A program made the position numbers and the translations under genes. A stretch of DNA of 63,927 nt, counting the filler, from Stramenopiles sp. TOSAG23-2 (lineage: Eukaryota), in the NCBI GenBank assembly GCA_900128395.1. It is 17 parts of 17 records of this genome, joined end to end, with 100 filler letters (N's around TTAATTAATTAA, not from the genome) between each part and the next. Parts side by side here need not be neighbours in the genome. Positions count along the whole stretch, not along the records: positions 12,979 to 17,200 come from LT650952.1; 16 more parts are not named here. The stretch is one strand, 5' to 3'. Under the pieces are notes generated by a model. It did not search any database and was not told the origin of the DNA. It saw only the letters and a list, made by a program, of their open reading frames with translations. Shown one piece after another: positions 11,057 to 62,829 of this stretch (position 1 is the first letter of the stretch; every line of letters starts with the position of its first letter).

Positions 11057-12166
11057 TTACAATTTTGATTGCTGTACAAGCCGTGGCAATACGTTTTTAT
11101 CTAAATTTGACCCTTCTTCCATGAGCCAACTTGCAGTACAAACAGGTTCACATACATACTCATGATAGATACCATACAAAACTAAAAACGATGCTATTGC
11201 ACGTGGAAATTTTCTTGCTAAAAGTGCCATAGCTACTGACGCACCACCAATTTTTATAAATTGTGTGGTTATTGAGTCTTGAAAATGTTTATAACCTTTA
11301 CCACTAACACCATCCTCTGGCAATTCCAATCCGACGGGACGTATGAAATTACCTTTTGCTAACATCATTGCTTTAAACATAGTCCGCCCAGCTAGTGTGT
11401 TAGTGTTCATCATCCCATTTTGACGTGGATTTTCAACATATTCTGGCACCCAATTAGCCAGACTTTTATCACCACTAAGACTACGTTCAATTGCTTTCAT
11501 AGCATCTTTTGCATGAACACGACCAGTAGCACCACCAGAATTTTTTCTGGAAGGAATCAAGGCCCAAGCATATAGTTTCTCCCAATCTTTCGTGATTGCT
11601 GCAACACCAGGTTCCATCATACCTTCTTTATATGTCCTTAAACCTTTCATATCACCAATTGTATATTTATCTTGATCAACCCATAATGTTAGAATATTTC
11701 TTTCATACAACTCCTTTGCAATTACAAGAGATGGATCCCCAACAATTTCATATTCAATCTTCCAAGCCTCTTTTGCCTTTTGCGCTTCATCGTTATCTTG
11801 CGAAGAAACTCCAATAATTTGTCCACCCGCTTCTTGAATTTTTTGTGCCACGCCTGAATTTTGATAACTTCTTAGTTCATCACGGCACGGTGGTCTGAAG
11901 ATTGATGAGTTAGTCTTAGAGGAATAGATATATACATTATGGCAGCTTGATGAATTAGATAGTATATCTTTTATAAAGCCTTAGGGGAATAGATATATAC
12001 ATTACGGCAGCTTTACGAGTAGCATGGCGGGGTTTCCTGAGTAGAGAATAGAATTTACTTACCACCATGTACCTCTGTAAAAAACGAAAGTAGTAAAATC
12101 TGCTTCTTGTAATTTACGTTCCAACCAATTTGTTGTTACAAGTGGTGCCTTATTAGTAACTGACAT
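11057..12166 (-). CDS. AhpC/TSA (peroxiredoxin-like) selenoprotein with UxxC; exons 12166-12063 and 11894-11057; 313 aa
   Basis: Exon 1 reads MSVTNKAP...FVFYRGTW-TG, donor GTAAGT, branch-like GACTAAC, acceptor TTCAG, exon 2 A-CCA-CCG-TGC, giving FYRGTW-U-PPCRDEL in frame with the annotated ORF (IIGVSSQ, IVGDP, EPGV thioredoxin-fold motifs). Confidence 0.85.
11895..12062 (-). other. 168-nt spliceosomal intron splitting the Sec codon; contains a 33-bp direct repeat
   Basis: GTAAGT...GACTAAC...CAG; repeat copies at 11916-11948 and 11981-12013 with 2 mismatches. Confidence 0.85.
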
Positions 12167-12607
12167 TGTTTTCTTATGAAATATTTCCAGCTGTTTATAA
12201 ATATATATTATCCAGGTGACACTATATTAATCAAAAAAGCTGGTTCAATATCTTCGTAGTATATATTTTGTAAATGGCTAAATATAATTATAATGATGGT
12301 TAAAATCAAAGTTATAATAATTTTACTTCCAAATACGAGTAATTATTTGTATATTTTATTATACGAGTAATAATTTTGTGAAGTCGAAGGTTAGACCAAA
12401 ATCTACAGCGACACGCGGAATAAGTGAAAATATAAAAAAAAATTATTTTTTTTTAAAACTTGGGACATGTATTTCGCATATATCTCGTACGACCCGTCGT
12501 ATATTATATTATATGATGCATATATATCTCCATATATATATAATATCCAAATTATTATATAATAATATATTCGTAGAAACTTTAAGCTCTCTCTCTTGCT
12601 CCATATA

Positions 12608-12877
12608 TTAATCTTCTTCATCATCTTCAACCAATACCCAACCTTCCGGAGGATTATATGTTTTAGTACCATCATCATTATCATCAAATGCTCCTTCAAT
12701 TGGACGTGTCGTCCTAGTTTTTATAACATCGCATATTGCTGGATCATCAGCACGGGTATCTTTACCCCATGTTTTAATTGTATGGTGCAAAGCTCTACCA
12801 TTATCTATCAAACGTTGGCGATCAACAATTTTTATATTTTGTGTTTTATTAATGGTAATTGATTGTATACAACCGCC
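12608..12877 (-). CDS. C-terminal fragment of a hypothetical protein (5' partial)
   Basis: Frame open from the contig edge: GGCIQSITINKTQNIKIVDRQRLIDNGRALHHTIKTWG...EDDEED*. Confidence 0.65.
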   Translation of the reverse strand, partial: GGCIQSITINKTQNIKIVDRQRLIDNGRALHHTIKTWGKDTRADDPAICDVIKTRTTRPIEGAFDDNDDGTKTYNPPEGWVLVEDDEED

Positions 12878-12978
12878 ANNNNNNNNNNNNNNNNNNNNNN
12901 NNNNNNNNNNNNNNNNNNNNNNTTAATTAATTAANNNNNNNNNNNNNNNNNNNNNNNNNNNNNNNNNNNNNNNNNNNN

Positions 12979-15900
12979 ATGGCAGCAACGTGCGTTTTCA
13001 ACAAGTCAGTGCCGGTTTTTTTCATACTTGCGGTGTTACCAGTGTAGGTGGACTTGAGTGTTTTGGTAATCGTGCAGACAAGAAAGATAAGCCCGAAAGT
13101 GGAGGTAAATTCATTCAAGTTAGTGCAGGTAAAGATCTCACCTGTGGTTTAACAGATGCAGGTGCAATAGAATGCTTGGGAGAAACACGTGATAAAAAGC
13201 TCCCACAACGTTTAAAGACAAAACATACAAACAAGTAAGCTTAAGTAATAATGGTAACTTTGTGTGCGGTTTAAAAAATGATGGGTCCACGGTCTGTTCT
13301 ACGCATGATAAATTACAAACATACTCGAAAAATTCTCATAGGTTCACTCAAATAAGCGTATCTGGATCCTTTGGTGGCCACTATTTGTTTGCATGCGGTA
13401 TTATAGATTCTGATGATGGTGGAATTGCATGTTTTGGTAACAACAAACCAGGATTTGACATGAACAAAATTCAACAGCCATCCAAGAAAAATAAAGGTGT
13501 TAAATTTATTGAAGTGCGTACGGGCCCTTACTATGTATGTGGTTTAACAAGTATCGGCGAAATTGAATGTTGGGGCGATGATCACAAGGTCAAAGGATAT
13601 ACAAATGGCTGGCAACCAAAAAAAACCAAAAAAATGTGGGGCATTTGGTTTATTTTGTAACGACAAAACATGCATAAACCAATGCCCTGCAGATACATAC
13701 AAACATGACAATAGCTGCACACATTGCCCAGAAAAGAGACCATCCACAAGTTCACAAATAGGAAAGACTGCCATATCCCAATGTGTAGCGAAGGGGTCCT
13801 GCAACCCTGGTTATGGCGTTATTGGGAACAGCGATTGCATCGAGTGCGATGTAAATACCTTTAGTTTAGGTGGATATGAGGCGAAATGCCAGAACTGCAA
13901 AGCTGATAACCCAACAACAAACAAAAAGAAAGGCCAAAAAAAATGTGAAAAGTGTTTGCCTGGGTATTCTCTTCAACAAAACGATAATGTAGAAACTGGA
14001 GTCTGCAATATACCATTGTCAAGACATGAATGTAGGACGGCAGCTGGAACAGAACGACATACAGCGGCAAGAAAAGAAATGGTAGTAAAAAAAAGAGGAG
14101 AGAAGATACCTGAGTTAGGGTTAGATTTGTTTGATAAACCTTATTATAATCTCAACCACTTCCCACCGGGATGCTATTTCGATCACTCGGTGTCTCGATT
14201 TGTTTTCAACGAAGATTTAACTTCAACAGCAAAATGCAGCAAAGATATGCCTTGTAGGTGTGCAAAAGCAACAACGACATGTATAAAATGCCCAGCGCTA
14301 TACTACAGTAATGAGAAAACCGATGGAAAATGTAACTATTGTATGCCACCTAGTTTAACAGATATAAAACAAACAAAATGTTTTTCTCAAGCAGATTTTT
14401 TTGAAGAGGTGAAACGGGATATAAATGCACAAAAAGAAACCACGAACGATTTATCACTAAAAAATACACGGTTATGGCAAAAAGAAGAAATTAGAGATAT
14501 GCACGATGAAATAATGGCAAAACGTAAATCAACCGACATTGAAAAGGAAAAAGAAACATGTGAAACACAACGTGAGAAAGGTATTGTTATTTTCCCAGCT
14601 ATGGAAATATCAGATGAAATTGACTTAAATGAATCAACTACTTGTATTGATATAAATCGTGATGAATTGATAAAATCGTTTTGTGAGTTTCGATCCGATT
14701 TAGACGAGTTTTTTTCATTGGAAAGCATAGACGAAGACGCTAAAACATTTTGGCCAAATATATGTTGCAAAGAACGACACGATACAGACAAAACAAAAAC
14801 GCTAGAAACATGCAAACCACCAGAAGGTACCAATATAAAATCTGAGGACATGATACCATTTGCTTTATCGCAAGGCGGGAATTTCAATCGTCACAATTTA
14901 TATGTTGAAGTTAGTGAAGCAATTAAAGAGAATGGTTATATCCATAAGGGTATGAATGACCTGTTAAAAAAGGTAATGGAGCATGATCATAACAAGCGTA
15001 CAGGTGCGACAAAATTAGTCAAATCCTTCTTCGAGGGGATTTCATTATGCGGACCTCGTCTAATAGATGGACCGGATGAAAACAAAATGTGCGAATTATT
15101 TATTCCATATAAGCATTCAATGAAGCATTTTCTGGAATTATTCAAAAGTTTATACAAAACAAAATTCAATCTGATACCACAGCAAGTATCATTTCTTGAA
15201 ACAATGGAACAATCCTTGCTAACTCGGCAATTATCGTCAAGGAAAATCCGATTAGGTAAAAGTGGTAAAAACACATTGACTTCAGTTGCCGCGGCAATGC
15301 AATCGAAGACAGCCCCAACACAGGTAATAAATAAACTTTTTAAAACTTGCAAGGGTACAAATTATCCAAAGACTGAGTTAGAGAAAATGAAAGAATCGTT
15401 TTGCAGTGGAGTAGAGCATATTGATTTACACAGTAAGAATGTCAAAAATGTCGCTGTATATTATCTTCACGATCAAATCTCAAAATCATACGTTGACAAT
15501 AATGTAAATATGTTTCGTTTAGCAGAAAAAATACGTTATGATGTCAAAGATTCTTCAAGCTGCCCAGTAAAACTTTTTGATGCAAACGATATATCTATTC
15601 AAAGAATAGCAATGGATACAAATGGTAAGAACAAAGAATGGGTTGCAGTTATAAATTTGAACACAAAATCAGAAGATGGATATTTCCAAAGTGAATTACC
15701 ACATTGCAAGGCGAAAAAATATTTAATAAGTGCAAAGGTCCAAGTTAAAGCTTATGTTGATAATACAAATTGTTGTAAGGATGATCGAGATTTTAACATG
15801 TGTCAAACAAATGCTGGTTGTGCAGACCAGTTAAACAAATGGAAATTGGCAGATGTTGACAACACGAAGCAATTTACGCGCGATATCATAGTGACAGGAA

Positions 15901-15980
15901 CCAACTATAAAATTAGTAATCTACATGATCAAAGGAGAAGAAGGCTTTTGACAAAAACTGATAGTCAGAATACAAGTTAA
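12979..15980 (+). CDS. Modular Cys-rich protein: RCC1/BLIP-II-like repeats, TNFR/ephrin-receptor-like Cys repeats, unrecognised domains A and B, RRRRLL tail; 5' partial; two homopolymer frameshifts
   Basis: ORFs 12990-13238, 13262-13660 and 13563-15980 join if A-runs at 13194-13198 and 13618-13634 are corrected by one base each. Repeats QVSAG..HTCG.T..G.LECFG; domains A and B align with ORFs at 52375 and 54173. Confidence 0.8.
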
Positions 15981-17355
15981 AAAAAAAAACGATTTTTATA
16001 CTTATGCGCATGAGAGCTTTATTAATATGATCATAATCGGAGTAAATCCTTCTTAGATTGAGTGAATTAACAAAATGTTATTCCTGAGATTGAGTATTGA
16101 GTGTGTATGATAGTATTTACCACCGGGAAGTAAATATATTAAATTATTAACCTCTAGATAAACTAAAAATGTAAAAGGGTATCATATTTTTAATTTTTTA
16201 AAATTTCTATATGATAACAATTCCTACTCTCCAAAAAATACAGCGTGCTTGAGCCAATATTAATATCTATCTCACTAAAATCGAAGTCAGATTGATACAG
16301 CGTACTGTTGTAGAGTATAGTCATAGTCCACGAAACGTGCCATTATTTCTAAAATGTAGCAATAATGAAGGAGGTAAACAGATGCGATTAACGTTATTGA
16401 AACACGTCAAACGATGAACATCGTACCTTGGTAGAGTATATCTTGGTCCTTGTCAAAGTCACATAAAGCATATCGGTTATTGTAGGCGCACGTCTTAATA
16501 ACCTGCTTAATAAATTGCTTGAAGCAATGGTCTACAGCAATAGGAGCTGTTACTAAAGTTGATTTGAAGTTGTTGACAATCGTATTTTCCTGGCATACGT
16601 TTAGGTTTTCCCTTTTGTTAATATATGTGGGTGCGCGTACTCCTACGTTATCAGCAACAATAATCTTATTCAGTAATAGATTTTTGCAGCAGTCATTATT
16701 ATCGTTCATTGATAATTGCTTCAAGTAATGAGTTTATATATATGTCTAGATATATTTAAATAATTCTCTTATTTACTATAATTTAAAGATTTTATTTACT
16801 CATAGATATATATTTAATATATATATATACGTAATCGCCAGAAATAATCAATTTCATAAATTGAAAGATATAACTAAACCGGAAAGACCTGTGAAAGAAT
16901 TATTCATGTTGTTTAGATCCAGGGGAAGCAAGAGTTGTAACTGCTGGTCGTGCTTCTTTTTGTTTTTTTGTGACTGGTCGTCGTTTCTCTTTAACTCGCG
17001 CTGCTATATTTTGTGAACCAGATGTATCATTAGTAGGTAACTTTCGCTTCTTCAGAGTGGAGCCACCAGTAATCGAATCAATGGTACTGGAAACGTCATC
17101 TACAGCCGACTTATCGATTGATGCCTGTGTATTTAAGTTTACGCATAATTAATTAATGCATAACTTATTTTTTAATTTACTCATGATAATTCCTACTCTC
17201 NNNNNNNNNNNNNNNNNNNNNNNNNNNNNNNNNNNNNNNNNNNNTTAATTAATTAANNNNNNNNNNNNNNNNNNNNNNNNNNNNNNNNNNNNNNNNNNNN
17301 ATTTATCAAAAGCCAGGGAAGAAAATTATCCTGACATAAACCTAATGAAAAAAAA

Positions 17356-22018: not shown

Positions 22019-22030
22019 TCATTTTCCATT

Positions 22031-22065
<35 letters not shown>

Positions 22066-25000
22066 CGAAATTATCAACATTTGCTTCAACAAACTTGCGA
22101 ACATACAGTTCTACCTGGTTGACAGCCTGACCAGGGCACGTGGCTGGAATGCCGCCGCGATAATCAATGTACGACCCAACGGCAAAATACCACCAATTAT
22201 TAGTTGATCCACTTAATAATGCACTTGATGAAGCAGAATGTAATCCACCCCAGTTACATTCATTATGTGGACACGATACCGATTCATATCCTTCGACACG
22301 ATTTGTTGTACATGGATTACTTGATTGCTTCCATCTTTGACAATCAAGTCCAGACCCTGGCCATTCAAGTTTAAACTCAAACATTTGATCAGGTGACGCA
22401 GACCGAAATTTTTCAAGTGTATCTAACGCAGCATAATTCTGTTCTGCTACGTTTCCAAACTTTAACCCATTTCTCCCCCAAAATGGCATATCGTCCGTCT
22501 TCGTCTGTCTTGCCACCAGTTGCCACTCAGCTTTGGGTAAAATACGCACGTTAAAATTTCCAATAAACACACTCTCATGATCTTCGACGTTTTCAACAAA
22601 TATATATGCAGTTGTAGTCGCACTTGAATAAAACTTGAATGAAAATTTTCCAATGCTATCTACAACAATTCCATCACTAGCATGATGCCAGCAATAACGT
22701 TGAGGCTTAGGCCCTGTGTGAAATTCAACGTAAACACGCAAATTACCAATAACACCATCAGGGTTTACAAACGTTTCAAATGAAACTTCATATGTTCCTT
22801 CCGAAATAACGGTATTGAAGTAGATTCTGCCATTCATATCAGCTTTTTTCATAGGTAAACTTAATGCTTGACATTCAATATTTTTTCGAATTTTCGAACC
22901 AGTTTGGTTGTGCCAGTTGGATACATTTGTATTATTCCAATTGAATTCTTCAATACGTGGAACAAAACAATAAACCCATCGATACCAACGCTGGGAGTCG
23001 GGATTGTGATCTCCTTCTAATGATTTTATCTCATTGTTTCCGAAATACCATGTCTGCCAATTATTATTGCGTAAATTTACTTTAATTACATTATCAGCAT
23101 TATTATTTTGATATTGTGTATCAATTTCATAACGATGTTGCTCCCATAGTTTACCACTACAAAAATGTGATTTTATTTTGTTGTGTTCAATGATTACAAT
23201 AGTAATAGAACAATAATCACTCTGATCGCCAACATCAACTCTGCGCCAAATACCATCACGCATAGCTGTTTTTAAATGGTTTAGAATCGACGCATTAGTA
23301 TCTTTTTTTGTTGACATTCTTTCTAGTGCTGTTTTACCATCATTATCACCTTTGATTCTAAGATCAGCACCTAAATCGATGAGTAATTTTACTACTTCGA
23401 AACTATTATAGAATGCAGCAATTCTTAACAAGGTATGGCCGTGTTTATTGTATTTTTTATTAAGAATCGCGCCATCTAAATTACATAAAATTTTTATAAT
23501 TTCTTCGTAATTATACTTGGCAGCTGCAAGTAATAATTTTTTTGTTTGCGTGCTGCTTACTAATGCTTGAGCCGCATTATTTGCAGCTAATGCAGCAGCT
23601 TGTCTTGCTACTTCAGCTTGCTGTTGCTCTTCTCTTCTCGCGGCTTCAACGGCTTCCGCTCGAAGTCTTGTTACAGCAGCTGTTTGTTTCTTTTGCAATT
23701 TACGTTTCAATTCTTCGGTTTCTTTCTCACATGTTTGTTTAGCTTCTACTACTTCAGCTTCACATTCTTTTATATTTTGTTTTAAATGTTTATTCTCTTT
23801 TGTAGCCACCTGTATTTTTTTGGTTAACTCAGCTATTTTATTGAAAAGCAGTTTTGCACGAGATTTTTCCTTTTTCACTTCATTTTTTAACATCGCTATT
23901 TTCGCTGCCGTTTCTTCTCCCGCTTCCATATCATCATAATCTGCACTACCTTTGTGTGTATTGTTTTGTTTACCTTCATTCTCTGCATTTATTTCAGAAG
24001 GAAACTTTCTTGCTTCAATCAATACATCCCGTTTACATCTTTGATATACACATACACTTGATCCAATACATAAAAATGCGATGAAGCACTCATACAACAT
24101 GTTAAAATTACAATTACTAAAATTTAAAGGATTGGACGTTTTCGTACCGCCAAAAGAAGACTTCATTGGTGGTGCAATTAAAGCGGTTTTAACACGTTGA
24201 AATTTCATATATTCATTGCCACCACTAATTAATAACTGCATAAACGGTTCTGTAATATTCAATTTTAAAATCTCACCAATGTAGGATGATACGAATTGAA
24301 AATAGCATCCACAAATGATAAGAAATATCGGTATTACCATATAAGTTCCTATGCGTAATATCATTTCATTTCTTTCGTTAATATCATCTATGTTTGTTCT
24401 TTTTGGTTGTGGTAGAACAGCATCGGCTTCTGGCGCAATTCCAGATGTTATATTATCAATATGATCATCAATATGATTATCAATATGATTATCAATATGA
24501 TTATCAACATGATTGCCCAAGATAACAAATTCACTACTATTAATTGCACCACCGAGTATTCTTCCGAGTACGTTTAATGTAGCACTATCTTGTATATTAT
24601 AGTCAGATAACTTACGACCAATTATCAATTCTGAACCTAAATAATTTAATCGTATTTCATTGACAGGAATACCCGATATTGTATGCACTTTTTGCATCAA
24701 TGCGTCCACTAAATCAGTACTACACATATGAATTGTACGTCTACTGCCCTCACCTAATTGAACATGTAACTGTATTGTACTGCCTTTACCTTGTGATACA
24801 CTTTGACCATTACGTTTATCTTTGATAAAGTTGTTATTGTCAACCGCACCATCTCTCTTTCGAAATTTGTCTTGAGCTTTTTGCAATTGATTCAATAACA
24901 TTGATGGGCTTGTACATCGTTCCTCATTTTTCCATTCAGGTTTGATGCAATTGACGATTTTTTGAGGCCACCCCTTGTTAAAAAGATTTCTTACATAATT

Positions 25001-25834
25001 CCTTCTAGAAAAACAAAGATGTTTTGAACAAGAAAGCGTTTTATAATTCCTTTCGATGTGCTCAACATTTGGTATAATGCCTCCTTTTTTCAATACAGGA
25101 CCATCTGTATGTAGATCATTGTGATTTGCACACACTCCAATTAACGATTTCAATTTATTATGGCAGGATTCTTTACTTGTTCTATATTTAAAGTCGCCTT
25201 TTCCTTTTAGAATCAAACTTCGCTCCAATGCTGAAATAATAAATCCGGCAAACTTACGTGAATTTTTGAACGATTTTTTACAGTGACTATACTTCTTCAT
25301 AAACGTTTTATCCTTTGGTAAAAAAATTTCCCATACTTTAATTTCCTTTGCAAACCTACACCTTGATAAAGGATTTACAATATTGTATTTACGATAAACC
25401 GATTCCATACAATGATAATTGCCGTCAATCTTTAACGTTAAGTTTGTTTTCTTCAAAGATTTTTTATTATTACCTTTACCATTTAATGCATGTTGGCTTT
25501 CTCGTTTAAGCGAGTTGTTATTGTTGTTGTAATTCTCCAATAAAACTTTTGGCCTTTGTGAAGTAGCAACATTTTTATCATCATCTCGCAATCGCAATGG
25601 ACTTTTTGAAGCAATATTTTCGTCATTACCACTCGTAACACCACCTTTCTTGGCAATAACGGCATAGGTAGTACCACCTGCGTCGACTTTTTCCTCCCCT
25701 TTTATCTTGGCTTCTTGCGCGTCATTGCTATGATCTAACTTTTGAACAGGTGCAGTAACTTGCATTAGTTGCTGACTTTGAACTTTAGCAAGTAAATTCG
25801 AATTTTCACGATGTGCAATCAGATTAACTCCGGA
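22019..25834 (-). CDS. Multidomain protein: internal ubiquitin-like domain, 2 hydrophobic segments, coiled coil, ankyrin repeat, C-terminal fibrinogen-C-like domain (5' partial)
   Basis: Ub-like IQLHV...GIPVNEIRLNYLG...LSDYNIQDSATLNVLGRILGG (24775-24548); ankyrin GHTLLRIAAFYNSFEVVKLLIDLGAD; C-terminus WQLVARQT..FEFKLEWP..WKQSSNP..WGGL..VELYV. Frame open to the contig edge. Confidence 0.85.
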
Positions 25835-25936
25835 ATNNNNNNNNNNNNNNNNNNNNNNNNNNNNNNNNNNNNNNNNNNNNTTAATTAATTAANNNNNNNN
25901 NNNNNNNNNNNNNNNNNNNNNNNNNNNNNNNNNNNN

Positions 25937-27442
25937 TGCTGATATTAAATCAATATCACCATCATTATCAATATCAATTGCAAATACACTTGAGGCACCA
26001 CCTGCATCTGTTGTAACTATTTGTTGTGGTCCAAATGTACCTTTACCATCTATGTTATCATACCATGCAATTTTATGATCATTCCTAGATGCTGATATTA
26101 AATCAATATCACCATCACTATCAATATCAATTGCAAATACACTTCTTGCACGCAACGCATCTGTTGTAACTATTTGCTGTGGTCCAAATGTACCTTTACC
26201 ATCTATATTCTCATACCATGCAATTTTATTATCTTTAGAAGATGCTGATATTACATCGATATCACCATCATTATCAATGTCAATTGCGAATACACTATAC
26301 GCATAATACGCATCTGTTGTAATTATTTGCTGTGGTCCAAATGTACCTTTACCATCAATGTTCTCATACCATGCAATTTTATCATCAGAAGCAGATGCTG
26401 ATATTAAATCTATATCACCATCATTATCAATATCAATTGCAAATACACTTCTGGCACTATTTGCATCTGTTGTAACTATTTGTTGCGGTCCAAATGATTC
26501 AGCTGATTTGCGAAGGCAATCGTGGCGACACTTGAAGCATGTCCCGTTTTCGCCATATTTTCCAAATGGGCAAGATGCACAATTTTTTGCACCAGCAAAA
26601 CCATATTTTCCGATTGCACAAGTACCTGAGCAGCCATGTGTTTCAGTGGTTGCTTCAATAATTCCCCCATATTTACCAGCTGGGCAAAGGATTTTACTTG
26701 TAACATTTGGACAATATGCACCCTTTGGACATAGACTACAATATGTAGAACCTGTATATACTGCTGTTTTCCCAACTAAACACGATTTACACGCACTAGC
26801 GTTTGTACTGCTTATTGTATTACTATATTTACCAGCTGGGCAAAGGATTTTACTTGTAACATTTGGACAATATGCACCCTTTGGACATAGACTGCAATAT
26901 GTAGAACCTGTATATACTGCTGTTTTCCCAACTAAACACGATTTACACGCACTAGCGTTTGTACTGCTTATTGTATTACTATATTTACCAGCTGGGCAAA
27001 GGATTTTACTTGTAACATTTGGACAATATGCACCCTTTGGACAAGGATTACAAGACGTCGGTTTGCATACACAGAACACCGTAATCGAACAGTCCAAGCT
27101 ACTTCTATATGGGTTGAAAGCCATAGTAAATTGGAGGTGTGGAAAAATTAAACAACCAAAAGGCAAAGATAATTTCATAGGATTATCATCGAGTGACCCG
27201 AAATACATGTTTCCAAGCCTTGTGGCAGCTTGTTGACACTCAGCTTCGGTTTGAGAGTCTTCTACACATCGTCCAATATTTTTTATCTTATCGTAGGGAA
27301 GGAAGCCCGGGTCACAGACAACAGCACTTGTATTTAAACAATATCCCCACTTTAAACACAATGTAAGCGCGAAGAAAAATAGAAAAAACACCTTCTTAAT
27401 TTTGAGTTTGTATTTGGGTCCAAATAAGCTAATGAAAAGCAT
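25937..27442 (-). CDS. Secreted/surface protein with TNFR/ephrin-like Cys repeats and FG-GAP/VCBS repeats (3' partial)
   Basis: Hydrophobic N-terminus; CPKGAYCP..CPAGKYS repeats; 51-aa repeats SVFAIDIDNDGDIDLISAS..DKIAWYENIDGKGTFG. Confidence 0.9.
26669..27043. repeat. Near-exact 156-bp coding tandem repeat (~2.4 copies)
   Basis: ATTTACCAGCTGGGCAAAGG starts at 26671, 26827 and 26983. Confidence 0.95.
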
Positions 27443-27551
27443 ATTTTGTTATTCTCACACGCAGCAGATACCAGTTTTTTTTCGTGAAGCCCTCCACACA
27501 CAATATCCTTCAGTAGTATCTCCTAAAAGGATATCTCTACAGTTGATATTT

Positions 27552-34561: not shown

Positions 34562-35525
34562 TGTATATAATGTTGTATATGGATTGTTCTATTTGGCGGT
34601 GGCAATTGCGCATCTGGCGATGCAACCAACTGGTTGCGACGTTACCACATGGGCAAATGGCTGTGTTAACAAGATTCCTTTCTGTAATACTTTGTTTACA
34701 CCCACCTGTAATTGCGCTTCATTAATGATAGAAAACAATAAATCGCTGGTAAAATTGCCTAATTCGTTGGCAGACGAGATGACGGGGCTGCGTAAACTGT
34801 ATATACGCAATTGCAATTTGACAAATTTACCGCCCAACATGGAACAATTAACGGAGATGGTGGATTTTGAGATATCGTTTAATCAGTTACAAACATTTGA
34901 AGTAGATATATTGAAATGGAAAAAACTAGATAGTTTAGTGCTGATTTACAATGAACTAGAAAGTTACAATCAGGCTGCTTTATGGGCACATCCACATCTC
35001 GGCTATCTTGATGTGTCAGATAATATTGGTATGGAATTGCCAAGTGCTGAAACGAAAATTGCAATGCCTTTGCTACGGTATTTTGGGTGTAGAAATAATA
35101 GTATAACGATTCATCTTCCATTTGATAAGAATCGCTTTCCAAATCTTATAGATTTATATGTCAATGGCAATCGATTAATCGAATTTCCAGATGCATCGTT
35201 ACAAGAAACGCTTCAGTATGTAGGTGTTGCTAGATGCGATTTAAAAAATCTGCCATCGTATTTGGCTGAATTTAAGCAATTGCAATACTTAGATGCACGG
35301 GATAATAATATTTCAGAGGTGAATGATGACTTGAAGATGTTGATAAGTAAAAACGAAGTAGAGTCGTATTTTTCAGACAATCCGGTGTGCAATACAGATG
35401 TGACTTTAGATTGTGAGCCATTATGCAGTAAATATTGCGGAAGTAAAAATGTGGTAGCCGATAAGTTCTGTCATCCCGAATGTAACTCAGAGGAGTGTCA
35501 GTACGATGGCAGTGATTGCTTTTAA
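34562..35525 (+). CDS. Leucine-rich-repeat protein with C-terminal LNR/Notch-like motif (5' partial)
   Basis: LxxLxLxxNxL-type repeats; terminal FCHPECNSEECQYDGSDC. Confidence 0.88.
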
Positions 35526-35613: not shown

Positions 35614-37300
35614 CTAGCACCCCTTTCGATGACCCATCAACAATCGCCTCCTCCTACTCTGCACACTCGACGTAAAAGTTAACCCGGTAAAATCAACCTG
35701 TGTATCACCCATTTTAACACTCCATTCTAATGTTTCGCAATTGTCTCGGATAAACTGACTAATATCATTTGGAATCACACCATTCCAAATAACAATATCT
35801 CCATCAACGGTTATTTCTTTTCTATCTTTCATATCGTTCACCCATTTTTTTAACTTCCTAATCTTTTTATCTTCTTTTTCATCTTCTGTCTCGCTGTTAA
35901 CAATTTCAATGGTCACTGGCTGTTCAGCATCCATTTGATTCTCCATTTGAAATTCCATTCCACTGATAGCACCTTCTCCATACATATCAAGATGCTTTGG
36001 AATGCCACAATTACCTTCGTTCCTTTCAGTTTCATCAACCGGGCATCGACTTGCTGCTTGATTATTATTAATTTGTTGCCATAAGTTTATGCATGTCATT
36101 TCCTCGGCTTTTGGTGGACCAGAATGCGATTTGGCGCGTTGCAATGTGTCTTTACATTGCAGATCGGTATATTTTTGAATCAGCTTTTTGCAAAAGCATA
36201 ACATCGAATTGTAATTGGAAAATAGCTCCTTCGTGTAGTTGAATTGTATTGCACTTGTATCTTGACTTATTTCAGTATTATAACGTTTTGTTGTATCAGC
36301 GATTTTAATTTCTTTATTGCTAAAGTCTCTAGGATCTTTGGTTTTTGCACTGATCTTTTCAGCTTTTTTTTTTTTTTTCTTCTTCTTTTTTTCTGTTTTG
36401 TCTTTTTCTCCAATTGCTTCTTTTTTTTCTTTTCCTTATGTTGCTTCTTTTTTTTCTTTTCCTTATGTTGCTTCTATTTTTTCTTTTCCTTCTTTTCCTT
36501 CGCATGGTTTGTTCCTGTTGCGACGTTCGTTGATCTACCTTTAAGAATGCATCCGTTGCCAATAGTCGGAATGGTGTTCCTAGTGTCTCTCCTTCTTTCA
36601 CTGTTGCTGCCGTTTGCCTAAACTGTGTTGCCACAGCACGTCTACTTAATAATGACCTACTTTTCTCTGCAGCACGGTTCAGTAATAACCGTTGACTATT
36701 CTTCGTTTCCAGAAAACTTGGCGTCTTTGGCTTTGGGTTTTTGTTGTCATGACATATAGGATGTTTGACCTCTTTTTTTCTTGATTCCATATCCTCCTTT
36801 GTAAGTCTATCGTCTCTTTGATACGCCGCAACAATTTTCCTGTTCACTTTCTGATTCTCCTCTTCTTTTTTCTTCTGCTTCTGTCGTTCTTCTTCTTTTT
36901 TTTTCTCCTGCTTCTGTCGTTCTTCTTCTTGTTTTTTCTCCTGCTTCTGTCGTTGTTCTTCTTGTTTTTTCTCCTGTCTCTGTTCATTTCTTTTTTGTAT
37001 ATTTTGTTTTTTTCTCCGGTTGCTTCTTTTTTTTCTTTTCCTTCCCATGGTTTGTTCCTGTTGCGACGTTCGTTGATCTACCTTTAAGAATTCATCCGTT
37101 GCCAATAGTCGGAATGGTGTTCCTAGTGTCTCTCCTTCTTTCACTGTTGCTGCCGTTTGCCTAAACTGTGTTGCCACAGCACGTCTACTTAATAATGACC
37201 TACTTTTCTCTGCAGCAATCACGTGGAGCGTAATAAATAGAAGAAAACAATATAACAGGTTCTTGTAGATCCTGTTGCTATGCGTGTTGTTTGTCTTCAT
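35614..37300 (-). CDS. Secreted protein with duplicated N-terminal segment, K/E/R-rich linkers, SFLE motif and RRRRLL...C tail; one frameshift in an A15 run
   Basis: Signal-like LLYCFLLFITLHVIA after ATG 37300; removing one base from the run at 36364-36378 gives AEKISAKTKDPRDF...NYNSMLCFCKK, continuous with ORF 35614-36204. Confidence 0.75.
36503..37217. repeat. 172-bp near-identical internal duplication
   Basis: 36503-36674 and 37046-37217 both encode AAEKSRSLLSRRAVATQF...SQQEQTM. Confidence 0.95.
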
Positions 37301-62809: not shown

Positions 62810-62829
62810 GACGTGTGCTCTTCCGATCT
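62810..62829 (+). other. Illumina TruSeq adapter remnant
   Basis: GACGTGTGCTCTTCCGATCT at the contig start. Confidence 0.97.

Follow-up and report, generated by a model that had tools for sequence, protein, structure and literature searches.

We found that the window analysed here (the whole stretch of 63,927 nucleotides, made of 17 joined contigs from a 32.8-Mb eukaryote assembly) holds members of a large family of proteins that carry a secretion signal, exchangeable tips, a constant core formed by two domains, A and B, and conserved motifs; the loops of one tip module are diversified, and genes for membrane proteins with LRR and LNR domains adjoin a number of the family loci. Together, these results led us to propose that the family constitutes a secreted, processed and multivalent recognition repertoire whose constant end would be captured by the linked membrane protein, a reading to which we assign a probability of about 0.45.

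The organism is taken as a MAST-4 picoflagellate, assuming a single-species assembly. The sole 18S gene found in the assembly contains an exact match to the MAST4 FISH probe and lacks the MAST3 probe site, allowing up to three mismatches (probe sequences from a table in PMC4234645), which ruled out the MAST-3 origin to which one EukProt label had pointed. MAST-4 are described as uncultured marine picoflagellates that feed on bacteria and small algae (10.1101/2020.10.09.333062). The GC content of the window contigs ranges from 27 to 44%. One of them, at positions 8656-12878, has a 30-nt inverted repeat at both ends, typical of amplification chimeras, and the contig of higher GC (0.44) starts at 62810-62829 with a sequence that we take to be Illumina adapter-like; these two features point to amplified single-cell DNA as the probable source. 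Elsewhere in the window, positions 1103-2374 (minus strand) encode a GH56 hyaluronidase-like protein (E 5e-39), and positions 22019-25888 (minus strand) a 1289-aa mosaic with a ubiquitin-like domain, a TM segment, ankyrin repeats and a C-terminus that looks fibrinogen-like.

Three loci of the window were considered in relation to the family (Table 1).

Table 1. Coordinates of the family-related features within the window.
Feature	Position	Strand	Remarks
Gene 1, 3' part	12979..15980	+	Contig G000:C4790; intact orthologue L109, 1265 aa
Gene 1, A/B frame, 810 aa	13548-15980	+	Holds both A and B
RCC1-like repeats, tip module in two frames	12981..13620	+	PF13540, E 2e-7 and 0.004; colinear with P0045
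1-nt deletion relative to L109	13202..13203	+	Frameshift; stop at 13236-13238
1-nt insertion in a run of A relative to L109	13618..13625	+	Second frameshift; restores the A/B frame
Ephrin-receptor/TNFR-like Cys repeats (stalk spacers)	13660..14390	+	Flank the variable module; PF07699, PF23091, E ~1e-3, below cut-off
Divergent hypervariable Cys 'PGC' module	14004..14264	+	Copy itself in the alignment, basis partly circular
Gene 1 domain A	14418..15167	+	53-residue helix, then Cys-rich helical bundle; 6 invariant Cys
SFLE motif directly after A	15189..15200	+	Candidate maturase site
Gene 1 domain B	15333..15930	+	Cys-rich, mainly beta, loosely Ig-like at most
RRRRLL motif and short C-terminal tail	15933..15980	+	
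Gene 2, 5' half	51780..54039	+	Frame 52198-54039; Cys repeats, A, SFIE motif, small Cys module
Close-type PGC modules of gene 2	51780-51970, 52270-52491	+	
Gene 2 domain A	53044-53784	+	56% identity to gene 1 A
Gene 2, 3' half, inverted	54173..55976	-	Collagen with small insert domain, coil, B, RRRRLL tail ending in Cys; frame extends 54173-56020
Gene 2 domain B	54179-54811	-	49% identity to gene 1 B
Gene 3	35614..37300	-	Family-type leader, SFLE and RRLL motifs, unrelated core, RRRRLL-GC tail; frameshift near 36400
TM-LRR-LNR gene, 3' part	34562..35525	+	Partner-family member; convergent with gene 3, 88 nt apart

Both domains were found in gene 1 with the motifs quoted in a sequence-only reading of this DNA, and both recur on a second contig, where the flanking modules differ as that reading had described (RCC1, Ephrin_rec_like Cys repeats and collagen). 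Its view of the second copy as one gene did not hold for the assembled sequence, in which gene 2 consists of two convergent frames, with A on the plus and B on the minus strand. These frames are together colinear with a single protein, P0055 (residues 1-378 and 434-935); the homology ends at ~54030, a hairpin lies at about 54049-54101, and a locus of another assembly (L166) presents a similar inverted split. In gene 2 the split is likelier to be an inversion artefact than a sign of two genes, short of proof. As for gene 3, which had been counted as a third member, it shares with the family just the tail, some 27 residues at its end, and a leader of 40 residues with 85% identity to P0090, but neither A nor B was found in it, and the A/B family is present on two of the 17 contigs instead of three.

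The signal peptide, a Gly-Ser linker and the first RCC1 repeats of gene 1 sit on another contig, G000:C1945, which overlaps G000:C4790 by 55 nt; that linker is long (L177), and the orthologue L109 has a duplicated unknown domain in its place. At both gene 1 indels the same letters were present in two DNA runs that are possible sources of the assembly, and none of the RNA contigs among the matches listed spans these sites. Poly-A phase variation was discarded, as just one of the two indels lies in an A run; none of three other frameshifts found elsewhere was in a homopolymer. Of 30 bins along gene 1, RNA contigs from two studies covered 28 and 25, differing from it by a few percent, a result consistent with expression in the sea, though not proof of it. 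Downstream of the gene, at 16245-16300, there is a short multi-copy element that is matched by other contigs of the DNA runs.

Searches of the assembly retrieved 63 matches to A and 57 to B (lower bounds rather than copy numbers), as would be expected from the expanded family that had been suggested. Relatives amounted to 73 proteins, 152 representatives at 50% identity and 67 loci in several assemblies, in external sets that overlap the own-genome proteins and are not fully independent. The GC3 of the family was 0.10-0.44 in its own genome and reached 0.68 in a few external loci, suggesting that the external A/B loci stem from more than one species.

Pfam gave nothing convincing for 37 A and 41 B sequences: no family was common to more than two A or more than five B members, and all matches were weak. 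Likewise, the A and B alignments found no convincing match by sequence in the PDB, a hit of A to a designed coiled coil (E 2e-4) being dismissed as generic helix. AlphaFold2 modelled A as a 53-residue helix plus a helical bundle (pLDDT 82, pTM 0.80) and B as mainly beta (pLDDT 86, pTM 0.81). With these confident models Foldseek returned nothing at E<=0.001, BFVD no match to B, and the ESM Atlas no usable named match; in a wide structural search the best scores, Z 6.6 for A against generic helical bundles and Z 4.2 for B against an Ig-like fold (101 aligned, rmsd 3.7), were within background. Mutual homology of A and B was ruled out by comparison of the two domains. Judging from these sequences and models, A and B belong to no known family among those compared, in line with their earlier description as unrecognised; missing matches do not prove new folds. 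Literature searches yielded no paper describing the A/B family; supplements of MAST genome papers could list such genes.

Variants of the core were also observed. L062 (G000:C3018) has three copies of the N-terminal helix of A, two of them placed within Cys modules with RRLL after them, showing that this helix is a separable module. Deep-branching members (L030-L036, L073, L077, L080, L211) have a third conserved domain of ~170 aa after B, a domain with no Pfam match that is also found without a preceding A or B before an RRRRLL tail.

The proteins follow a common layout. A signal peptide and the variable tips come first, followed by a coil and A; after A stand an SFLE or RRRRLL motif, a linker that sometimes contains collagen, B, and the RRRRLL tail. 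Signal peptides were detected in 65 of 80 family frames closed at the 5' end, versus 19 of 95 control frames. Whole A and B were present in 94 of the 97 sequences that begin in signal-like fashion and finish with RRLL, and the other three had B with a split or partial A; a hydropathy heuristic identified no segment of transmembrane strength in any of these full-length sequences. The identities of A and B co-vary (rho 0.82, 82 genes), and over 16 reciprocal-best pairs dN/dS was 0.68 for the tips, 0.20 for A, 0.34 for the linker, 0.24 for B and 0.25 for the tail, showing that the A-B core evolves as a unit under purifying selection and that the tips evolve fast. The tips are from 46 to 959 residues long and, in 50 proteins scanned, included RCC1/tectonin-like, Kelch, F5/8, PA14 and DUF4214 domains and Cys repeats; they are carried by stalks made of Cys repeats or coiled coil. 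No NTPase domain was present in the 50 members scanned. Collagen was restricted to 2 of 38 own and 7 of 116 external linkers, and Asn layers of the trimeric-autotransporter type were not enriched before A (3 in 7627 residues). With its signal peptides, lack of TM segments, constrained A and B and fast tips, the family thus answers to the lineage-restricted secreted scaffold with variable tips that had been put forward from the sequence.

Two motifs of this layout deserve attention. Of the linkers, 26 of 38 own and 58 of 116 external ones have SF[LIVM][EQ] at most 45 aa after A, against 4 of 849 background windows; in the same two sets a looser form accounted for 6 and 25 linkers and an RRLL-type replacement for 5 and 14, and by the rules used 1 and 19 had no motif. 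An RRLL-type motif lay within the last 22 residues in 45 of 46 own and 100 of 108 external B-containing ends, with a C-terminal tail of 5-15 residues beyond RRRRLL. The strict tail pattern matched 29 times versus 8 in the control; a loose one lacking Gly (128 matches versus 222) was useless as a count. In the tree, SFLE and RRLL take each other's place more than once, with the position unchanged and in several clades. RRLL is described as a recognised S1P site (PMC2685025) and HSFIQE as a plasmepsin X substrate (PMC9352755), and in a diatom frustule protein an RXL is reported five residues before the end (PMC9650480); from these likenesses we infer processing at the RRLL and SFLE motifs. S1P and kexin genes were not found in the assembly, which is incomplete, and PF23090 and PF23094 gave no match, with the controls silent too. 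The genome has several aspartyl proteases, and the one tested was weakly nearest to plasmepsin V (E 1e-16). Six sedolisin-looking and several aspartyl proteases (L094-L099, L100-L108) are candidate maturases. The same RRRRLL tail was also seen on secreted proteins with unrelated, unannotated cores (L074-L077, L194, L195, L197, L199, L200), of which L194 and L195, on two contigs, resemble a two-gene unit that has been duplicated.

A two-domain proprotein with an internal motif could instead belong to an extrusome matrix, A and B being lattice subunits cut from it, in the manner of Grl in Tetrahymena or of the trichocyst matrix proteins in Paramecium, and the variable tips making the discharged thread sticky. 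SFLE resembles the maturase sites of apicomplexan secretory organelles, the genome contains several aspartyl proteases, as mentioned, and Grl proteins of ciliates are reported to be processed by an aspartyl cathepsin (PMC4142616). However, no sequence or fold similarity to Grl or trichocyst matrix proteins was found, B is mainly beta, Grl proteins are described as acidic and Ca-binding whereas the family is Cys-rich and basic at its linkers, and no report of extrusomes in MAST-4 was found in the portions of the literature covered; we consider a matrix role unlikely.

The diversification of the tips was most evident in a ~70-residue Cys module, here called PGC, in which two loops flanking PPGC differ heavily between pairs with ~99% identical cores. 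Its strict pattern occurred 38 times in the assembly and was absent from the control; the Pfam matches of 29 module sequences were weak, with none common to more than three members. For 62 distinct close copies, picked by DNA similarity (which favours a low pS) and with two dropped for lack of an open frame, pN was 0.219 and pS 0.121; those inspected were within open frames. Within a common set of 17 genes, 7 of 2063 four-fold sites differed in the module versus 1662 of 4729 in A, and the modules were 69% identical in protein. The diversity at codon positions 1, 2 and 3 was 0.237/0.236/0.151 in the module (52 copies, protein-pattern set) versus 0.245/0.162/0.399 in A, and 43 loop pairs were distinct among 45 copies. 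In gene 1 itself, an RNA contig that is 96-97% alike on either side has 73 different letters in place of loop 1 (14076-14147). Close module copies were found on cores from distant clades (L156, L159, L163), indicating that modules have probably been exchanged between genes; repeat mis-joining could contribute, and a four-gamete test was as high in the control as in the module. As far as the sequences tell, the pattern matches concerted evolution plus diversifying selection as in fungal NLR repeats. Resemblances of the small modules to WW, CBM5/12, kringle and crystallin domains were not confirmed. Positions 25889-27448 (minus strand) encode a secreted-type protein with Cys repeats in which a divergent PGC module (27083-27304) stands beside FG-GAP repeats, so the module is present on other scaffolds as well.

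Dispersed two-gene units and loops that vary at codon positions 1 and 2 with position 3 fixed might also be expected from an artefact, a viral insertion or a selfish cassette (contaminant, giant virus or mobile two-gene unit) or from a DGR-like mutator, and artefacts of single-cell type are present in the window. This possibility is largely refuted and we regard it as highly improbable: GC3 is alike in the family and in the housekeeping genes of the genome, and the genes adjoining family loci are ordinary eukaryotic ones, such as U1-70K, IFT20 and cyclophilin (27 frames scanned). No relatives were found in viral contigs, prokaryote genomes or phages with A, the PGC module and A plus B as queries, and neither A, B nor the module had a significant match in PHROGs, BFVD or a phage tblastn; A and B are, moreover, under purifying selection. 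A DGR-type mutator was rejected since 11 four-fold adenine sites are 94-100% conserved over the 62 copies, which excludes adenine-specific mutagenesis. Neither a characterised Pfam family or fold nor an origin in a virus or another organism came to light, in agreement with the sequence-only reading.

Another explanation for a large family with diversifying tips, Cys-repeat stalks, collagen and no catalytic domain is a surface coat or decoy, whose processed chains would polymerise on the cell and whose loops would vary to escape recognition by viruses or predators; a C-terminal RXL is used by diatom wall proteins (PMC9650480). Against this explanation, which we think unlikely, the tips include glycan-binding types, no anchor is present, and the linkage to LRR-LNR genes is left unexplained unless the LRR-LNR proteins anchor the coat. 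In addition, the loops are rich in Tyr, Ser and Gly (17, 17 and 16%), a composition typical of binding surfaces.

The recognition reading draws further on the linked gene, which the sequence-only reading had passed over, as it had the hypervariable Cys module and the two interchangeable motifs of processing type. Its product has 640-780 residues, about four TM segments, LRRs and a C-terminal LNR domain, and at least 63 matches to it, from 120 candidates, occur in the assembly. It adjoins 13 of 64 own family loci (4 of the 13 partners having served as queries) and 14 of 66 external loci, versus 0 of 30 control loci (107 kb); by a hand estimate, 0.3-0.6 partners would be expected by chance in 161 kb of flank. 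Among own loci with at least 2 kb of flank, 11 of 32 have the partner; half of the 51 own loci with no visible partner have less than 2 kb, and gene 1 has none within 1.2 kb. By coordinates, the arrangement is convergent in 9 own and 9 external pairs, divergent in 4 of either set, and tandem in one pair. Of 20 further LRR-LNR loci, six (two of them duplicates) have a convergent secreted gene with an RRRRLL tail and without A or B; among the others, roughly half do not extend far enough to judge, and a few clearly lack a tail gene. Gene 3 and its neighbour at 34562-35525 form such a pair, and because tail genes without A/B also lie beside LRR-LNR genes, the pairing follows the tail class and not A/B alone. 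An in-frame RRRLL tail was also noted ~220 nt from a convergent LRR-LNR gene at G000:C782:5322-7432. Co-divergence of partner and A/B was not detected among 20 pairs (Mantel rho 0.18, p 0.14).

The close linkage of two genes, mostly tail-to-tail, together with strong allelic loop divergence on 99%-identical cores, calls to mind a self/non-self or mating-type system made of a polymorphic secreted ligand and a TM-LRR-LNR receptor. In Brassica SCR/SRK and Dictyostelium TgrB1/C1, a polymorphic secreted or surface protein is encoded beside a membrane receptor. The likeness lies in the linkage of ligand and receptor; here, in contrast, the pairs number in the dozens and are scattered rather than confined to a single locus, the folds are unrelated, the partners do not co-diverge, and generic glycan binders are found among the tips. 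We therefore hold such a system to be improbable.

Under the recognition reading, a subtilisin would cut RRLL in the secretory pathway and an aspartyl or similar maturase would cut SFLE, separating tip-stalk-A from linker-B and taking off the tail. The chains might then oligomerise, as trimers where collagen is present, so that several tips would be displayed together. The loops, diversified by point mutation, selection and module exchange, would attach to foreign surfaces (of prey cells or viruses) in the course of an arms race, while the neighbouring membrane LRR-LNR protein would capture the constant part of the chain, B or the tail being the likeliest; this pair of soluble adaptor and receptor could couple variable binding to the cell. 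In support of this idea are the secretion without TM segments, the obligate A and B, the motifs, the dN/dS values, the module, the tip domains, the linkage and the RNA coverage. Weighing against it are the failure to find an S1P or kexin gene in the incomplete assembly, the partners without co-divergence, the many loci with no partner and the 4 of 13 own pairs that are divergent, the rarity of collagen in the linkers, the lack of enrichment of trimer-type Asn layers before A, the frameshifts of gene 1 as assembled, and short-read mis-joining of repeats, which could fake some of the module exchange.

A bolder proposal, which we find rather unlikely, is an antibody-like system in a free-living unicellular predator: a library of multivalent secreted binders would be built on a new Cys scaffold that has two CDR-like loops, and module exchange would shuffle it between genes. 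Two conserved SAR-type proteases would mature the binders, and the linked 4-TM LRR-LNR receptors would read them out, selecting prey or neutralising viruses. Few molecular candidates are available for prey recognition and virus resistance in such grazers, and the family supplies testable ones, namely two confidently folded domains with no known relative, a small disulfide scaffold with naturally randomised loops, which is of interest as a binder scaffold too, and a receptor candidate from linkage.

Collectins, ficolins and C1q are soluble collagen-containing pattern-recognition proteins with binding heads on stalks. The family resembles them in being secreted and, in some members, in having collagen, a neck coil and a C-terminal globular domain; it differs in that B is no C-type lectin, fibrinogen or C1q domain (from Pfam and the fold search listings), collagen is optional and the variable part is N-terminal. 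Ciliate Grl/trichocyst matrix proproteins are, like the family, multigene secreted proproteins with conserved processing motifs (PMC4142616), whereas Cys richness, variable adhesive tips and a beta domain set the family apart, and no homology was found. With respect to processing, RRLL in a secreted protein fits the R-X-L-X consensus of S1P/SKI-1 substrates, though no S1P gene was found here; SF[LI][EQ] fits the plasmepsin X substrate peptide, which suggests that the SFLE-type maturation of apicomplexans may also operate in stramenopiles; and the C-terminal RXL with a short tail is as in the diatom RXL proteins. The way of diversifying is already known, whereas literature searches turned up neither the scaffold nor the module nor the gene pairing. 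In Podospora, NWD/HNWD repeats are reported to be exchanged within and between genes, with near-identical frameworks and few diversifying positions (PMC4986451). Fungal NLR repeats with high internal conservation thus share with the PGC module a homogenised framework and diversified positions; they are, however, cytosolic WD, ANK or TPR repeats on NACHT/NB-ARC proteins, whereas the family carries an extracellular Cys module on secreted proteins with no NTPase. If the recognition reading is true, the regime of concerted evolution plus selection of those cytosolic receptors would extend to secreted proteins.
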